DNA of 64,000 nt from Escherichia coli 042. GTDB lineage: Bacteria > Pseudomonadota > Gammaproteobacteria > Enterobacterales > Enterobacteriaceae. The stretch lies in NCBI RefSeq assembly GCF_000027125.1, contig NC_017626.1, one strand, 5' to 3'. A model generated the notes under the pieces. The model was given only the letters and a program-made list of their open reading frames with translations, did not search any database and was not told the DNA's origin. Within the stretch, counting starts at the first letter, position 1. The number at the start of each line of letters is the position of its first letter. The translations under genes and the position numbers were made by a program. This document shows, piece after piece, positions 55,783 through 60,232 of this stretch.

Positions 55783-57000
55783 TTATTTGCCAGTGAGCGC
55801 CTTGATGGCTGCCACATCTTCCAGCACACAGTCAAAACGATGGAAAGCCAGAAATGCCACCTGATCAAACTCAGCATAACGCTCAACCAGACGTTTCAGT
55901 TCCATATAAGTAACGCGGCGAATGATAAAGCGGTTGAAATCCCCCAGGAAAATGAATTTTTTTCCGGTACCAATCCCGTCAATAGCCTGATCAATAACAT
56001 AAGGGATCCCCAGCACAGTAGCCGGCGTACCGCCTGCAATATCCGGCAGCCATAACGGGCGTTTCTGTCCATCCTCCATCTCTTCAATAGTCTGCAATGT
56101 GGCATCATTGAATGCCCAGCGGTATTTCGGCCCACCACGATATGCCGGATCAATGGCATGTTTCAGGGCATTCATTTCTTTCCAGGTGAAAGCGGCAGAG
56201 GCTGCAGTCTGGATGATTCCCGTCACCGACGCTGCCAGCCCTTTTGGCTGTAACGGTGATCCCGTTCCGGTCCCCTGAACCAGATATTTCGCCTCTCCAC
56301 GACCAATACGCTGGGCAATACGGTTTGCCAGATAAGATTCAATATCCACCCCACTGTCCTGGAGCAGCTCATTGGACACACGAATTATTTTTGATGACAG
56401 CTTTTTAGCCCCCAGAATAGCGGTCCCGAACGTCACATCCTGTTCCGTTGCGGCTGTATTTTCCGCCAGCAGTTCGCCCTCTTCAGTCGTGCCATCAGAC
56501 GTTGACCAGGTGATATCCTGCCCGGTTGATGTGGTCAGAAGTTGCGCAACACTGGCAATCCCGCCATAAGCCTTCATGGTGTCAATGATTTTGTTACGCA
56601 TCTGCGTGGGCACCGTATATCCGCCCTGAGAATCCGTTGTTACACTCTGAGCCCGCAGTTCACGCATCAGATTACGCTCTTCAGCATTCAGTTCTGCAAA
56701 TCCGGCACGCAGAAAACGGTTAAATGCCGCAGCGCGCTTCTCTTCCACCGCCTTTTTCCCGTTCTCCGCCTCATTATTCTGGCGCTCTTCCGGCCCGGAC
56801 TCATCCACATATGCCTGATCCTGACGGCGCAACTCTTCTTCACGGGCGATTTGCTCATCCAGCGCATCCAGCTCAGCTTTCGCCCTGTTCCACTCTGCCC
56901 GTTGCTCATCAGTCCATGCGTTATCACCAATTTTTTCATGCAGTGCACGCATATCCTTTGCAATGGTGTTTCGTTTTTGCTTCATCTCATGAAGTTTCAT
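55783..57000 (-). CDS. HK97-family major capsid protein
   Basis: 405-aa ORF with N-terminal coiled-coil delta domain and C-terminal HK97-fold region, after the prohead protease. Confidence 0.85.
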   Translation of the reverse strand: MKLHEMKQKRNTIAKDMRALHEKIGDNAWTDEQRAEWNRAKAELDALDEQIAREEELRRQDQAYVDESGPEERQNNEAENGKKAVEEKRAAAFNRFLRAGFAELNAEERNLMRELRAQSVTTDSQGGYTVPTQMRNKIIDTMKAYGGIASVAQLLTTSTGQDITWSTSDGTTEEGELLAENTAATEQDVTFGTAILGAKKLSSKIIRVSNELLQDSGVDIESYLANRIAQRIGRGEAKYLVQGTGTGSPLQPKGLAASVTGIIQTAASAAFTWKEMNALKHAIDPAYRGGPKYRWAFNDATLQTIEEMEDGQKRPLWLPDIAGGTPATVLGIPYVIDQAIDGIGTGKKFIFLGDFNRFIIRRVTYMELKRLVERYAEFDQVAFLAFHRFDCVLEDVAAIKALTGK

Positions 57001-58980: not shown

Positions 58981-59706
58981 TCACAGAATTAACAGGTCCT
59001 CATCAGGATCAAGCGTGGACAGAAAGTCATTCACGCCCCCGCCATTTACCAGAAAGCGGCTCATGGCTGTAAAAAGCGCAACAGGGCCGTCGATTTTGGC
59101 TTCCGGCGTGGATTTATTCGGGAAGATGTTGTCGTTTTTGTCCGGTTTTACAGTAACGTTAGACATCATCCAGTTCATGACCGGATGATTGCTGTGATGG
59201 AAACGCCCGGCATAAACCAGTGATTCCGTTTCCTTCATGGCCTCTGACAGATTGCGGACCGTCTGCGGAACCTCCACCAGCGGTATCCCTTCTTCAGCCA
59301 GTGCCAGACTGAACTGCATTGCGCTCCACGGGTCAAATCCCAGTTCCCTGAGGTTTTCACCGCCAATCCATTCCAGTAAGTCACTTTTTATCTGAGCATG
59401 ATCGATAACATCACCATCCGTCAGGATGAGCTTATCCATCTCCGCCCACTTCCGGTAAAGTTCTGCCTGCTGCCGCGAGCATCGTTCCAGCCGTCCTTCC
59501 GGAAGCCAGAATTTAAAATCAGCATGAACATGTCCGTTATCGGTTCGCCAGAGTTTTGCCGCCGCACAGATATCAATCTTATGAGCAAGGTCGACGCCGA
59601 CCCACATGGGATATGTTTTCAGCTCATGTTGTGGAGCAATGTATTCGCACTTCTCCCACTTAATCATATCCATCCAGGCAGATTCGGCAGTGACCCACAC
59701 ATTCAT
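58981..59706 (-). pseudogene. 5'-truncated terminase large subunit (C-terminal nuclease domain only)
   Basis: 241-aa ORF aligns to residues about 315-553 of the intact TerL at 60233..61894 (for example NVTVKPDKNDNIFPNKSTPEAKIDGPVALF versus NVVMQSDANANIKPNKKKSSNKIDPSVAAL) and lacks the ATPase domain. Confidence 0.65.
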
Positions 59707-59998
59707 GTGTTTGGTAAGAATATTTCAAGTTTTTTAAAATTGACTGTATATCAATCGTTTAACATGAAAAAACAGTCTTTATAAATCATCGAGCAATACA
59801 CAGCGCAATACACGTATCTGTATTGTTTTAATGCTGATACACACCGTTTTTTGATACAGTGATTCGACCTACCATCGCGAAGCATTTTTTATTTCTTGTG
59901 TGTAACAATCTGACGAGGTGAGCACTCAAAGAGATAAGAGGCAGTAGAAATTTCGATCCCCCCTGAATGCAATTTTTCGTATATATATACAAAACAGT

Positions 59999-60151
59999 GC
60001 GGGTTATGCGGGTTAGCGGGTTATCTTCGCGTGCTAATTATCTTTTACTCTTTAATATCAATATGTTAAAAAACAACGCATTTAAATATCAGCCAGAATG
60101 TAACCCGCAAGACATTCAAAATAACCCGCAAACACCCCTCAAATAACCCGC
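59999..60151. repeat. iteron-like repeat cluster around an AT-rich core
   Basis: Three tandem GCGGGTTA(T) units at about 59999-60024 and three inverted copies (A)TAACCCGC at about 60101, 60121 and 60143, spaced about 21 bp, flanking an AT-rich centre. Confidence 0.7.
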
Positions 60152-60232
60152 AAAAACATCCCTGAAAGTAGGTGCCGGTAATACTGAAAATTTATTCCAT
60201 TAAATGAGCATTGTCCTCTCTCATCCATTCCG

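Follow-up and report, generated by a model that had tools for sequence, protein, structure and literature searches.

A probable origin-type iteron module at the far end of a capsid-forming PICI inserted in a prophage terL gene

RESULTS

The window analyzed here is a 64-kb stretch of Escherichia coli 042 DNA, and the segment under study, 59707–60232, is non-coding and lies between a 553-aa TerL ORF and the 3′ fragment of another terL gene. The fragment (58981..59724, minus strand; the ORF covers 58981..59706 and the remainder was assigned by homology) is the 3′ part of a prophage terL that was split by the insertion of a satellite. It is homologous to the intact terL of phage Evi up to position 59724 and is labeled "terminase TerL endonuclease subunit, missing N-terminus" in RefSeq relatives; the other half of the gene, encoding the N-terminal part, adjoins the satellite integrase gene in relatives. 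On the other side, the 553-aa ORF (60233..61894, minus strand), which was also assigned by comparison with relatives, encodes the terminase large subunit of the satellite and is its last gene. The satellite TerL and TerS are 93 and 88% identical, respectively, to their counterparts in EcCIEDL933 of E. coli O157:H7 EDL933, the prototype capsid-forming phage-inducible chromosomal island (PICI), or cf-PICI. The window stops within the satellite portal gene, and the rep gene of this copy lies beyond the window end. The closest relative of the window, at locus L010 (98.6% identity), carries a matching DUF927 rep.

The attR core TTGGTAAGAATATT (59711..59724) recurs imperfectly, in direct orientation, as TTGGTAAAAAAATT at the integrase end (attL), and the attR-side and attL-side homologies to the Evi terL overlap by 14 bp (Evi locus 1862–1875). 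The earlier note had described a foreign packaging cassette meeting a truncated TerL. The cassette is the end of a complete capsid-forming PICI satellite of ∼15 kb, inserted into terL by site-specific recombination, and the truncated TerL corresponds to the 3′ half of the split prophage gene. Because the satellite is inserted in a prophage terL, it is a helper-embedded PICI (HE-PICI), a published class. Like the HE-PICIs described by Mageeney et al. 2023 (PMC10111431), it combines a split terL with a doubled TGTATTGC motif to either side of the crossover point. It differs from those published in being a capsid-forming satellite that itself encodes HNH-TerS-TerL, portal, protease, and capsid proteins, and that paper contains no description of origin modules.

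The doubled motif, GCAATACAC-N3-GCAATACAC, was located at 59793..59813 (plus strand) by a repeat finder and by comparison of islands. All terL-inserted islands examined (L001/L003, L006, L010, and L011) have one such pair near attR and one upstream of int, and no pair was found in islands with other integrases. GCAATACAC is the reverse complement of tgTGTATTGCantgTGTATTGCa, which has been reported as a motif unique to HE-PICIs (PMC10111431). The doubled GCAATACAC is probably the integrase arm-type (or AlpA) site of helper-embedded PICIs. The same attachment-site arm contains TATCAATCGTTTA (59749..59761, plus strand), a match to the IHF consensus and assigned on that consensus alone.

Sequence reading and the repeat finder revealed three tandem (T/A)GCGGGTTA units arranged head-to-tail at 59998–60023 (plus strand), namely TGCGGGTTA at 59998, TGCGGGTTA at 60007, and AGCGGGTTA at 60015, with spacings of 9 and 8 bp. 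An AT-rich spacer of 77 bp (60024..60100; 22–30% G+C), a candidate melting region, separates them from three units in the opposite orientation (60101..60153, minus strand), which read TAACCCGCAA on the plus strand and occur at 60101, 60122, and 60144. The spacing of 21 and 22 bp corresponds to about two helical turns. Exact matches to GCGGGTTA number 12 in the window, of which six fall within the 155 bp of the array, and shuffled 64-kb windows contained 1.8 matches on average, with 12 reached in none of 100 shuffles. The earlier note had read this segment as three tandem and three inverted copies, the latter ∼21 bp apart, around an AT-rich stretch of ∼75 bp, forming a multimeric protein-binding array that is not a CRISPR. 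The layout is borne out by these measurements and shuffles, and the note was right about the kind of array and about CRISPR.

The array is conserved in 34 distinct homologous copies. Counting only the four repeat units that played no part in locating the copies, the repeats are 98.3% conserved compared with 86.4% for the bases between them (Mann-Whitney p = 1.7e-8), and the offsets 102, 123, and 145 are held within about 1 bp in most copies. Within the spacer, TATCAATATGTTA at 60056–60068 matches the IHF consensus (a consensus match only). The pattern WATCAANNNNTTR occurs six times in the 64 kb, two of them in the intergenic region that holds the array. An IHF consensus is present in the spacers of 33 of the 34 distinct distal modules, with a chance expectation of ∼1.3% per shuffled spacer, and in all four of the checked modules that have other iterons.

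Two further conserved segments precede the tandem repeats. Comparison of copies showed that a flank at 59868..59972 accompanies the distal module whatever its repeat sequence. It is followed by a box, TTTTTCGTATATATATACAAAAC (59973..59995), which abuts the tandem repeats and is nearly invariant in the 34 copies. The box is a candidate for an unwinding element or for the −10 region of a promoter. It is also found beside modules with other repeats, including rep-adjacent ones, and in the rep-adjacent versions it lies ∼20–30 bp upstream of the start codon of the next gene, with a ribosome-binding site between. A simple promoter scan gave a single promoter-like site, on the plus strand at 59711, and no intrinsic terminator was found.

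A structured RNA in the conserved flank was considered and rejected: among nine diverse copies there was no base-pair covariation on either strand, and the RNAalifold covariation term was positive, which gives no support. An Rfam scan of 59500–60400 at E ≤ 1 produced no match, and ARAGORN detected no tRNA or tmRNA. The ORF at 59967..60146 was likewise rejected as a small protein gene. Its length ranges from 17 to 77 aa in 29 homologues and its start is missing in five others, so it is not coding; some RefSeq genomes call it a "hypothetical protein."

When the region was compared with a phage database, matches to phages were confined to the initial 75 bases of the query, which belong to terL, and the array had no counterpart there except for a short 84% match in an unannotated 2-kb record. 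The 17-mer GCGGGTTATGCGGGTTA had 47 matches in 100,044 species genomes (298 Gb), all in unrelated taxa and none in enterobacteria, with ∼35 expected by chance according to our estimate. In the literature, the repeat string was found in primer sequences only, and it is not present in the text supplements of the 2018 PICI paper.

Comparison with EcCIEDL933 linked the array to a replication gene. Positions 59980–60133 of the window are 80% identical to an intergenic region of EcCIEDL933 that lies directly 3′ of its DUF927 rep and contains eleven GCGGGTTA units in two iteron/AT-rich/iteron modules. Both sequences have tandem units, an AT-rich spacer, phased inverted units, and a TATATATA-type box in the same orientation to transcription. 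They differ in that the EcCIEDL933 module is contiguous with the second module and with rep, has two phased units rather than three, and does not have the 105-bp conserved flank, whereas the module in the window follows terL at the end of the island.

In 11 loci, the GCGGGTTA repeats occur in two separated modules. Module A, with two tandem and four phased repeats, adjoins the 3′ end of rep; module B, with three tandem and three phased repeats, is the array in the window and lies 7.8–10.7 kb from rep. Module B follows the last gene at the integrase-distal end, ∼275 bp inside attR, and would therefore be located just upstream of attP and int in the excised circle. A second lineage, represented by L140 and L138, has the same flank, TATATATA box, and module B layout with TGGGACAAG repeats in place of GCGGGTTA; in both loci TGGGACAAG is present in the distal and the rep-adjacent modules, together with a matching Rep C terminus. 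The rep gene is intact in L140 and has an internal stop in L138. Two separated regions sharing the same iterons are thus seen in 11 GCGGGTTA loci and in two TGGGACAAG loci, which suggests that the origin is split in many enterobacterial PICIs, one of its halves being remote from rep and beside the attachment site.

We then compared the repeats with the type of Rep. Between five and 12 GCGGGTTA units follow 46 of 47 DUF927 rep genes, a count to which the way of finding the loci contributes some bias. What is informative in the covariation is that GCGGGTTA is missing beside primase-type (0 of 5) and RepA-type (0 of 2) genes, where the repeats are GTAGACAG, GGTAGAGG, TGTTCACC, and CCCCACTT. Among these, TGTTCACC is the P4 type-1 iteron, and the PICI Rep associated with it is 49% identical to P4 alpha. 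Reps that share the common GCGGGTTA are 88–89% identical over their last 120 residues and only 43–46% identical over the N-terminal 145. Conversely, for a Rep using TGGGACAAC the identity is 96% in the core, 78% in the N-terminal part, and only 42% over the last 120 residues. In this survey the repeat sequence tracks the C-terminal ∼120 residues of Rep, not the integrase or terminase type, and the relatives therefore display the covariation of repeat and Rep seen with origins of the PICI/SaPI type. This pattern suggests that the last ∼120 residues of Rep set the origin repeat specificity.

The DUF927 Rep matches Pfam DUF927 and PDB entry 8TCH, "Pathogenicity island protein" (E = 2.5e-12); a match to the Cch helix-turn-helix at residues 635–704 was weak. 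A profile search of its C-terminal domain gave no PDB match, and a homologue search returned 18 proteins only, mostly fragmentary. AlphaFold models of this domain had a pLDDT of 49.6 with 4 sequences and 45.6 with 14 sequences, values too low for a fold search. The order of secondary structures (helix, helix, β-hairpin) is compatible with a winged helix and proves nothing.

The pairing of module B with rep is not constant. Among the terL-inserted islands, a DUF927 rep with GCGGGTTA is present in L006 and L010 and a RepA-helicase rep with CCCCACTT in L001 and L011, and the distal array is almost identical in all four. Rep cassettes have been exchanged between otherwise near-identical islands. 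A GCGGGTTA module B ends islands with five or six non-matching repeat types beside rep, and in total eight module B loci have non-matching rep-adjacent repeats compared with 13 that match. Where the repeat beside rep does not match, module B cannot serve the resident Rep in the manner proposed below. These comparisons suggest that the distal half survives swaps of the rep cassette.

DISCUSSION

The array in the window is probably an origin-type iteron module of an enterobacterial PICI. Its most likely role, judged from sequence comparison, is that of a replication-origin-type binding site for the satellite replication protein. This assignment is based on homology, on the position of the array, and on its covariation and conservation. 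The earlier note had offered an iteron-bearing replication origin as one of three options, and this option gained support from the EcCIEDL933 homology, the covariation with Rep, and the conservation of the repeats. The element is of a known kind in an unusual place, the far end of a satellite, and the arrangement is modestly new.

In the mechanism that we infer, which includes Rep binding, melting, the use of IHF, and a requirement for module B, the initiator would be a DUF927-type self-loading helicase related to the Reps of staphylococcal pathogenicity islands, and its C-terminal domain would bind the GCGGGTTA units. These form two sets that face each other over the AT-rich spacer with its putative IHF-type bending site. 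Helicase assemblies loaded on both sides would melt the spacer, and replication of the excised satellite would start at, or be enhanced from, the melted region. The origin would be bipartite, with module A beside rep and module B 8–11 kb away, a layout resembling the ori/crr pair of satellite phage P4.

PICI origins consist of two opposed iteron sets flanking an AT-rich region 3′ of rep, and this arrangement is functional for EcCICFT073 (Fillol-Salom et al. 2018, PMC6092414); the origins of SaPIs are likewise organized (Ubeda et al. 2007, as cited in PMC9371898). The rep-adjacent region of EcCICFT073 has the same layout as the array with a different repeat, GGTAGACA. In these systems, as described in PMC6092414 and in the account given in PMC9371898, a self-loading Rep helicase recognizes the iterons through its C-terminal domain, and each Rep has a repeat sequence of its own. 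The array shares with them the two opposed sets around an AT-rich region. Whereas the published origins lie immediately downstream of rep, module B follows terL at the integrase-distal end, 8–11 kb away in relatives, as one half of a putative split origin; it also differs from them in having an IHF-consensus site and in sometimes accompanying a non-matching Rep.

P4 offers a second comparison. Its replication needs both ori and crr. In the P4 record, 8-bp type-1 repeats are present in crr, right after alpha and beside attP, and in ori, 4.7 kb away. P4 thus shares with the split modules octamer iterons in both orientations and two cis regions kilobases apart, one of them at the 3′ end of the replicase gene, and in some of the surveyed PICIs an alpha-like Rep is paired with the P4 iteron TGTTCACC. 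Module B differs from P4 in the sequence of the repeats and in their internal arrangement, crr contains 120-bp direct repeats, and the element adjacent to attP is the rep-adjacent one in P4 but the rep-distant one in the lineage of the window. The replicase also differs: P4 alpha matched only the primase-type PICI Reps by BLASTP (40–49% identity), and the DUF927 and RepA-type Reps had no BLASTP match to it.

None of the packaging-site, integrase-arm, RNA, and small-gene readings of the array was supported. The earlier note had suggested that the array might be the packaging site or regulatory region of the element that contributed the cassette, and a site at which the satellite small terminase directs cutting and packaging (cosB- or pac-like) would fit its location directly after terS-terL. 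Moreover, opposed repeats around an IHF-type site resemble the R3-I1-R2-R1 arrangement of λ cosB (review PMC9026076), in which repeated protein sites in both orientations likewise surround an IHF site near terminase genes, and in some relatives ACGRGGCGG, a string with a weak likeness to cosN, is found ∼75 bp to the left. The array nevertheless has no adjoining cosN or cosQ and is placed downstream of terL, not upstream of terS; the flank contains no λ-type cosN within 3 mismatches of a 17-mer cosN query and is unlike the published cos1 and cos2 of EcCICFT073. In HNH-dependent systems of the HK97 type, the expected place of cos is between the HNH and terS genes. The same array is present in satellites without terminase or other packaging genes (L004 has no terminase genes) and in L002, where a DUF1441 protein replaces the P27-type TerS and a clear homologue of λ cosQ-cosN is found upstream of the gene for this protein instead of at the distal end. 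In EcCIEDL933, despite the close similarity of both terminase subunits, the array is beside rep and none follows terL. Its repeats also follow the C terminus of Rep, and we consider a packaging function very unlikely. Even less probable, to the point of being barely credible, is that the repeats are recombination arm sites, part of attR/attP and bound by the integrase N-terminal domain or by an excisionase (AlpA). Arm-type sites are commonly repeated and the array is ∼275–430 bp from the attR core at the end of the island, but GCGGGTTA is not in the attL arm, both arms of the terL-inserted islands hold the different, HE-PICI-described doubled motif GCAATACAC, which has the two-sided distribution of an arm-type site, and the array accompanies at least four different integrases, with attachment sites in terL, cspD/clpS, tRNA-Pro, and yifB, and is internal in EcCIEDL933, ∼9 kb from the distal end of that island. 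An operator, in which the tandem repeats by the TATATATA box serve mainly as a repressor or activator site for leftward transcription that would cross attP into int in the excised circle, is compatible with an origin role and is suggested by the near invariance of the box and by its place before a ribosome-binding site and start codon in the rep-adjacent versions. Initiators of iteron replicons often autoregulate. Against this reading, the simple promoter scan showed no σ70-like site on the minus strand here, the distal box is followed by no gene, with no conserved ORF or RNA structure found, and the phased inverted set and AT-rich spacer are unexplained by an operator alone; we regard it as improbable.

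The exchange of rep cassettes raises the question of whether an origin-type module is still in use in this island. If its rep and module A cassette had been swapped, the array would be an orphan relic left without present function, as the exchanges among near-identical terL-inserted islands and the eight non-matching loci, with their five or six repeat types, would allow; furthermore, the genomes of two non-matching islands show a single place matching the module. We think this unlikely, since L010, the closest relative of the window, has a matching rep, and since the non-matching islands keep intact repeats despite 10–20% divergence of the flanks, 3 + 3 in L001, L002, L008, L011, L013, and L062, and 3 + 2 in L044. 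The swaps in these islands might simply be recent. A further, still less likely idea is that module B, which keeps intact repeats at the ends of islands with six different non-matching Rep/repeat types, is more than half of the origin of its island, acting between satellites or, in a milder form, reflecting a P4-like need for two sites. It could possibly allow the island to be replicated in trans by a GCGGGTTA-specific Rep of a co-resident or incoming PICI, or titrate or "handcuff" the Rep of a competitor and so be an incompatibility determinant among phage satellites; in the milder version, a distal half beside attP could couple replication to the excised state.

For annotation, the locus becomes a helper-embedded cf-PICI inside terL; it should not be labeled a terminase cassette that was duplicated or truncated, nor the array a packaging site. 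If the distal half of the proposed origin is functional, the annotation of PICI origins, now assumed to be right after rep, would change, a simple sequence marker for Rep specificity groups would become available, and the possibility of cross-replication or incompatibility between co-resident satellites would be opened. Phage satellites of the PICI family mobilize genes for virulence and defence and trade their replication modules as cassettes.

The Array Lies in a Satellite That Interrupts a Prophage terL Gene

A re-reading of the sequence confirmed the array reported in the earlier note (59998-60153). Three tandem units, TGCGGGTTA TGCGGGTTA AGCGGGTTA (59998-60023), lie head to tail at spacings of 9 and 8, and are followed by a 77-bp AT-rich spacer (22–30% G+C) and by three TAACCCGCAA units in the opposite orientation (60101, 60122, and 60144), 21–22 bp apart. 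The array lies within a 526-bp non-coding gap bounded by a terL 3' fragment and, on the minus strand, a 553-amino acid TerL ORF (60233..61894). The 64-kb window contains 12 exact matches to GCGGGTTA, 6 of them within the 155 bp of the array; shuffled sequence gave a mean of 1.8 matches per window, and none of 100 shuffles got to 12. The six single matches elsewhere (4806, 12938, 17075, 32894, 34966, and 46389) are unclustered; their number slightly exceeds the whole-window mean of 1.8 and equals the largest shuffle value, and they probably reflect chance.

The same junction was found in 33 complete E. coli genomes, the best match being 98.6% identical to the window. In annotated relatives, the minus-strand genes on the right-hand side of the array make up a complete satellite of ∼15 kb, in the order integrase, AlpA-type regulator, second HTH protein, Bro-N, Icd-like, DUF4222, replication protein (Rep), SSB, PerC or ProQ, major capsid protein, prohead protease, portal, head-tail connector, HNH, small terminase (P27 family), and large terminase. 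Such a gene complement is that of a capsid-forming phage-inducible chromosomal island (cf-PICI), the prototype of which is EcCIEDL933. The last base of the window falls inside the portal gene, and rep lies beyond the window end. The satellite interrupts the prophage terL, the N-terminal 1029 bp of which adjoin the integrase in the relatives; what had been noted as a truncated TerL is a terL 3' fragment, now recognized as the C-terminal part of the split prophage gene. Compared with the uninterrupted terL of phage Evi, the two halves have homologies that overlap by 14 bp, the duplicated attachment core TTGGTAAGAATATT (59711-59724). The terL-split context is also seen in the relatives L003 (15690-18112) and L010 (2708-5131). 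Satellites that sit within prophage late genes and share their orientation have been known since 2023 as helper-embedded PICIs (HE-PICIs; PMC10111431), and the window carries the integrase-distal part of such an element, a cf-PICI within prophage terL (58981-59724, 60233-64000). An intact prophage large terminase is impossible before satellite excision.

The Array Resembles Known PICI Origins

A sensitive search with window positions 59868-60175 returned matches in 370 E. coli genomes. O157:H7 strains, EDL933 among them, match over 59980-60133 at 80% identity, just downstream of the EcCIEDL933 DUF927 rep; the intergenic region there holds eleven GCGGGTTA units arranged as two iteron/AT-rich/iteron modules. 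The origins of Gram-negative PICIs and staphylococcal pathogenicity islands (SaPIs) lie just 3' of rep and consist of two oppositely oriented iteron sets on either side of an AT-rich stretch, to which Rep, a self-loading helicase, binds through its winged-helix C-terminal domain (PMC6092414, PMC9371898); the EcCIEDL933 region agrees with them in position and layout. The experimentally tested origin of EcCICFT073 (PMC6092414) has the same layout but a different repeat (GGTAGACA). The DUF927 Rep matches a solved "Pathogenicity island protein" (8TCH, E = 2.5e-12), with a weak Cch-type helix-turn-helix match near its C terminus. By its layout and its homology to part of the origin region of EcCIEDL933, the array is predicted to be an iteron module of the PICI origin type. 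Rep may bind and melt DNA at the array, for which the satellite may also have some requirement.

Viral contigs were scanned for GCGGGTTATGCGGGTTA, and the 71 loci obtained were pooled with the E. coli loci, revealing two module types. Module A (two tandem units, ∼45 bp of AT-rich sequence, and four inverted units at offsets 62, 73, 94, and 115) directly follows the DUF927 rep at every locus with a visible rep gene. Module B, the type in the window, has three tandem units, a 77-bp AT-rich stretch, and two or three inverted units (offsets 102, 123, and 145). The modules are contiguous in 10 loci, as in EDL933; in 11 others in which both are visible, they are separated by 7.8–10.7 kb, and module B follows the last gene at the integrase-distal end, its orientation relative to transcription being identical in both arrangements. 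From this comparison, the origin appears to be split, with the array as its second half, moved to the integrase-distal end. A precedent exists in satellite phage P4, whose record marks octamer "type 1" repeats in both crr, which directly follows the alpha gene and adjoins attP, and ori, 4.7 kb away.

The Repeat Sequence Tracks the C-terminal Domain of Rep

The rep-adjacent repeat is GCGGGTTA for EDL933-type DUF927 Reps (46 of 47 rep genes, a count inflated by the method of finding loci), TGGGACAAC for a DUF927 Rep with another C terminus, GTAGACAG, GGTAGAGG, or TGTTCACC for primase-type Reps, and CCCCACTT for RepA-helicase-type Reps. Reps that share GCGGGTTA are 88–89% identical over the last 120 residues and only 43–46% over the first 145, and the TGGGACAAC Rep shows 96% identity in the core, 78% in the N-terminal part, and only 42% in the last 120 residues. 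These domain-by-domain identities indicated that the repeat sequence tracks the C-terminal domain. At least six Rep/iteron specificity groups (GCGGGTTA, TGGGACAAC/G, GTAGACAG, GGTAGAGG, TGTTCACC, and CCCCACTT) share one origin layout, as seen at L001 (20650-20860), L008 (8770-9100), L002 (16990-17260), and L044. In all Rep types, the N-terminal ∼30 residues are nearly identical (MKLAPNVK...IIFAGSDAW), the remainder coming from different families. TGTTCACC is the P4 type-1 iteron, and the Rep beside it is 49% identical to P4 alpha; some E. coli cf-PICIs, seen at L013 and L062, carry nine exact copies ∼400 bp 3' of rep. The P4 iteron together with an alpha-like Rep in cf-PICIs connects the PICI and P4 replication modules.

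The strongest test of the link between the distal module and Rep type came from a second lineage (L131, L138, and L140) with the same flank, TATATATA box, and module B layout but with TGGGACAAG repeats. In its two islands that retain rep, the rep-adjacent module is also TGGGACAAG, with a corresponding Rep C terminus; thus, on at least two occasions the distal repeats have changed in step with the rep-adjacent ones, with the flanks unaltered.

The distal GCGGGTTA module matches the rep-adjacent repeat in 13 loci and does not in 8, where it accompanies CCCCACTT (L001 and L011), GTAGACAG (L002 and L007), GGTAGAGG (L044), TGGGACAAC (L008), or TGTTCACC (L013 and L062). Its repeats are intact (3+3) in these non-matching loci except L044 (3+2). 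Rep cassettes have evidently been exchanged between otherwise near-identical islands; terL-inserted islands include both DUF927 and RepA types, and the closest relative of the window carries the matching DUF927 rep. The orphan modules could be recent leftovers, or could function in trans with a Rep supplied by another satellite.

Conserved Features of the Distal Module

Distal module B is always accompanied by a ∼105-bp conserved flank (59868-59972) and the box TTTTTCGTATATATATACAAAAC, and the flank is kept regardless of repeat sequence. No RNA family match, covariation, ORF, or cos similarity was detected in it. In a set of 34 distinct distal GCGGGTTA modules, conservation was 98.3% for the four units that had played no part in ascertainment and 86.4% for the bases between units (p = 1.7e-8). 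The spacer contains an IHF-consensus match, TATCAATATGTTA (60056-60068), a possible bending site judged by consensus only; it recurs in 33 of the 34 modules and in all four checked modules with other repeats, compared with a chance of ∼1.3% per shuffled spacer, and is absent from module A spacers. Although this kind of element is already known, the split arrangement, the conserved flank, the IHF-type site, and persistence in islands with a non-matching rep have no description in the literature that could be searched.

Alternative Roles of the Array

The earlier note leaned toward a packaging or regulatory site. Packaging was not borne out: the array is present in L004, an island that lacks terminase genes altogether, and in L002, which has other packaging genes, and it adjoins rep in EcCIEDL933 although TerS and TerL there are 88–93% identical to those of the window. 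No cosN-like sequence was found at the array, and the flank bears no resemblance to the published cos sequences of EcCICFT073; in L002, a stretch with clear homology to lambda cosQ-cosN is located upstream of the DUF1441 gene. An RNA or small gene was rejected for want of an Rfam match, covariation, or conserved ORF. A promoter in the TATATATA box with the array as its operator is a possible additional role, and in rep-adjacent versions this box lies ∼20–30 bp upstream of the start codon of the next gene.

An integrase arm site was also considered. The doubled motif GCAATACACAGCGCAATACAC (59793-59813) matches the published HE-PICI hallmark, and the attachment core is separated from it by a stretch with an IHF-consensus match (59749-59761). 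All terL-inserted islands examined have a doubled GCAATACAC motif on each side of the core, the pair on the far side being upstream of int (L010 3867-3887 and L006 17197-17217); examined islands with other integrases lack it. The doubled motif, rather than the array, is likely the recombination arm site. This role was excluded for the array, which is also found with at least four integrase types.

Several PICI distal ends carry 3–7 units, each a short TTCC...GGAA-type hairpin with GAAARTATCAACNRGTTA after it, as at L005 (9330-9790, the EcCIEDL933 distal end), L002 (12440-12750), and L141 (11656-11900, the EcCICFT073 distal end); this element is distinct from the array and absent from the intergenic region of the window. 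The intergenic region that separates HNH from terS, where cos would be expected in HK97-like HNH-dependent systems, is overlapped by a small minus-strand ORF (62354-62540); relatives annotate this ORF as a hypothetical protein. At L001 6156-8407 (strain 06-00048), the downstream major capsid gene of the prophage is broken by the IS21-family element ISEc10, which renders that helper prophage defective; the capsid ORF of the window (55783..57000) is intact.
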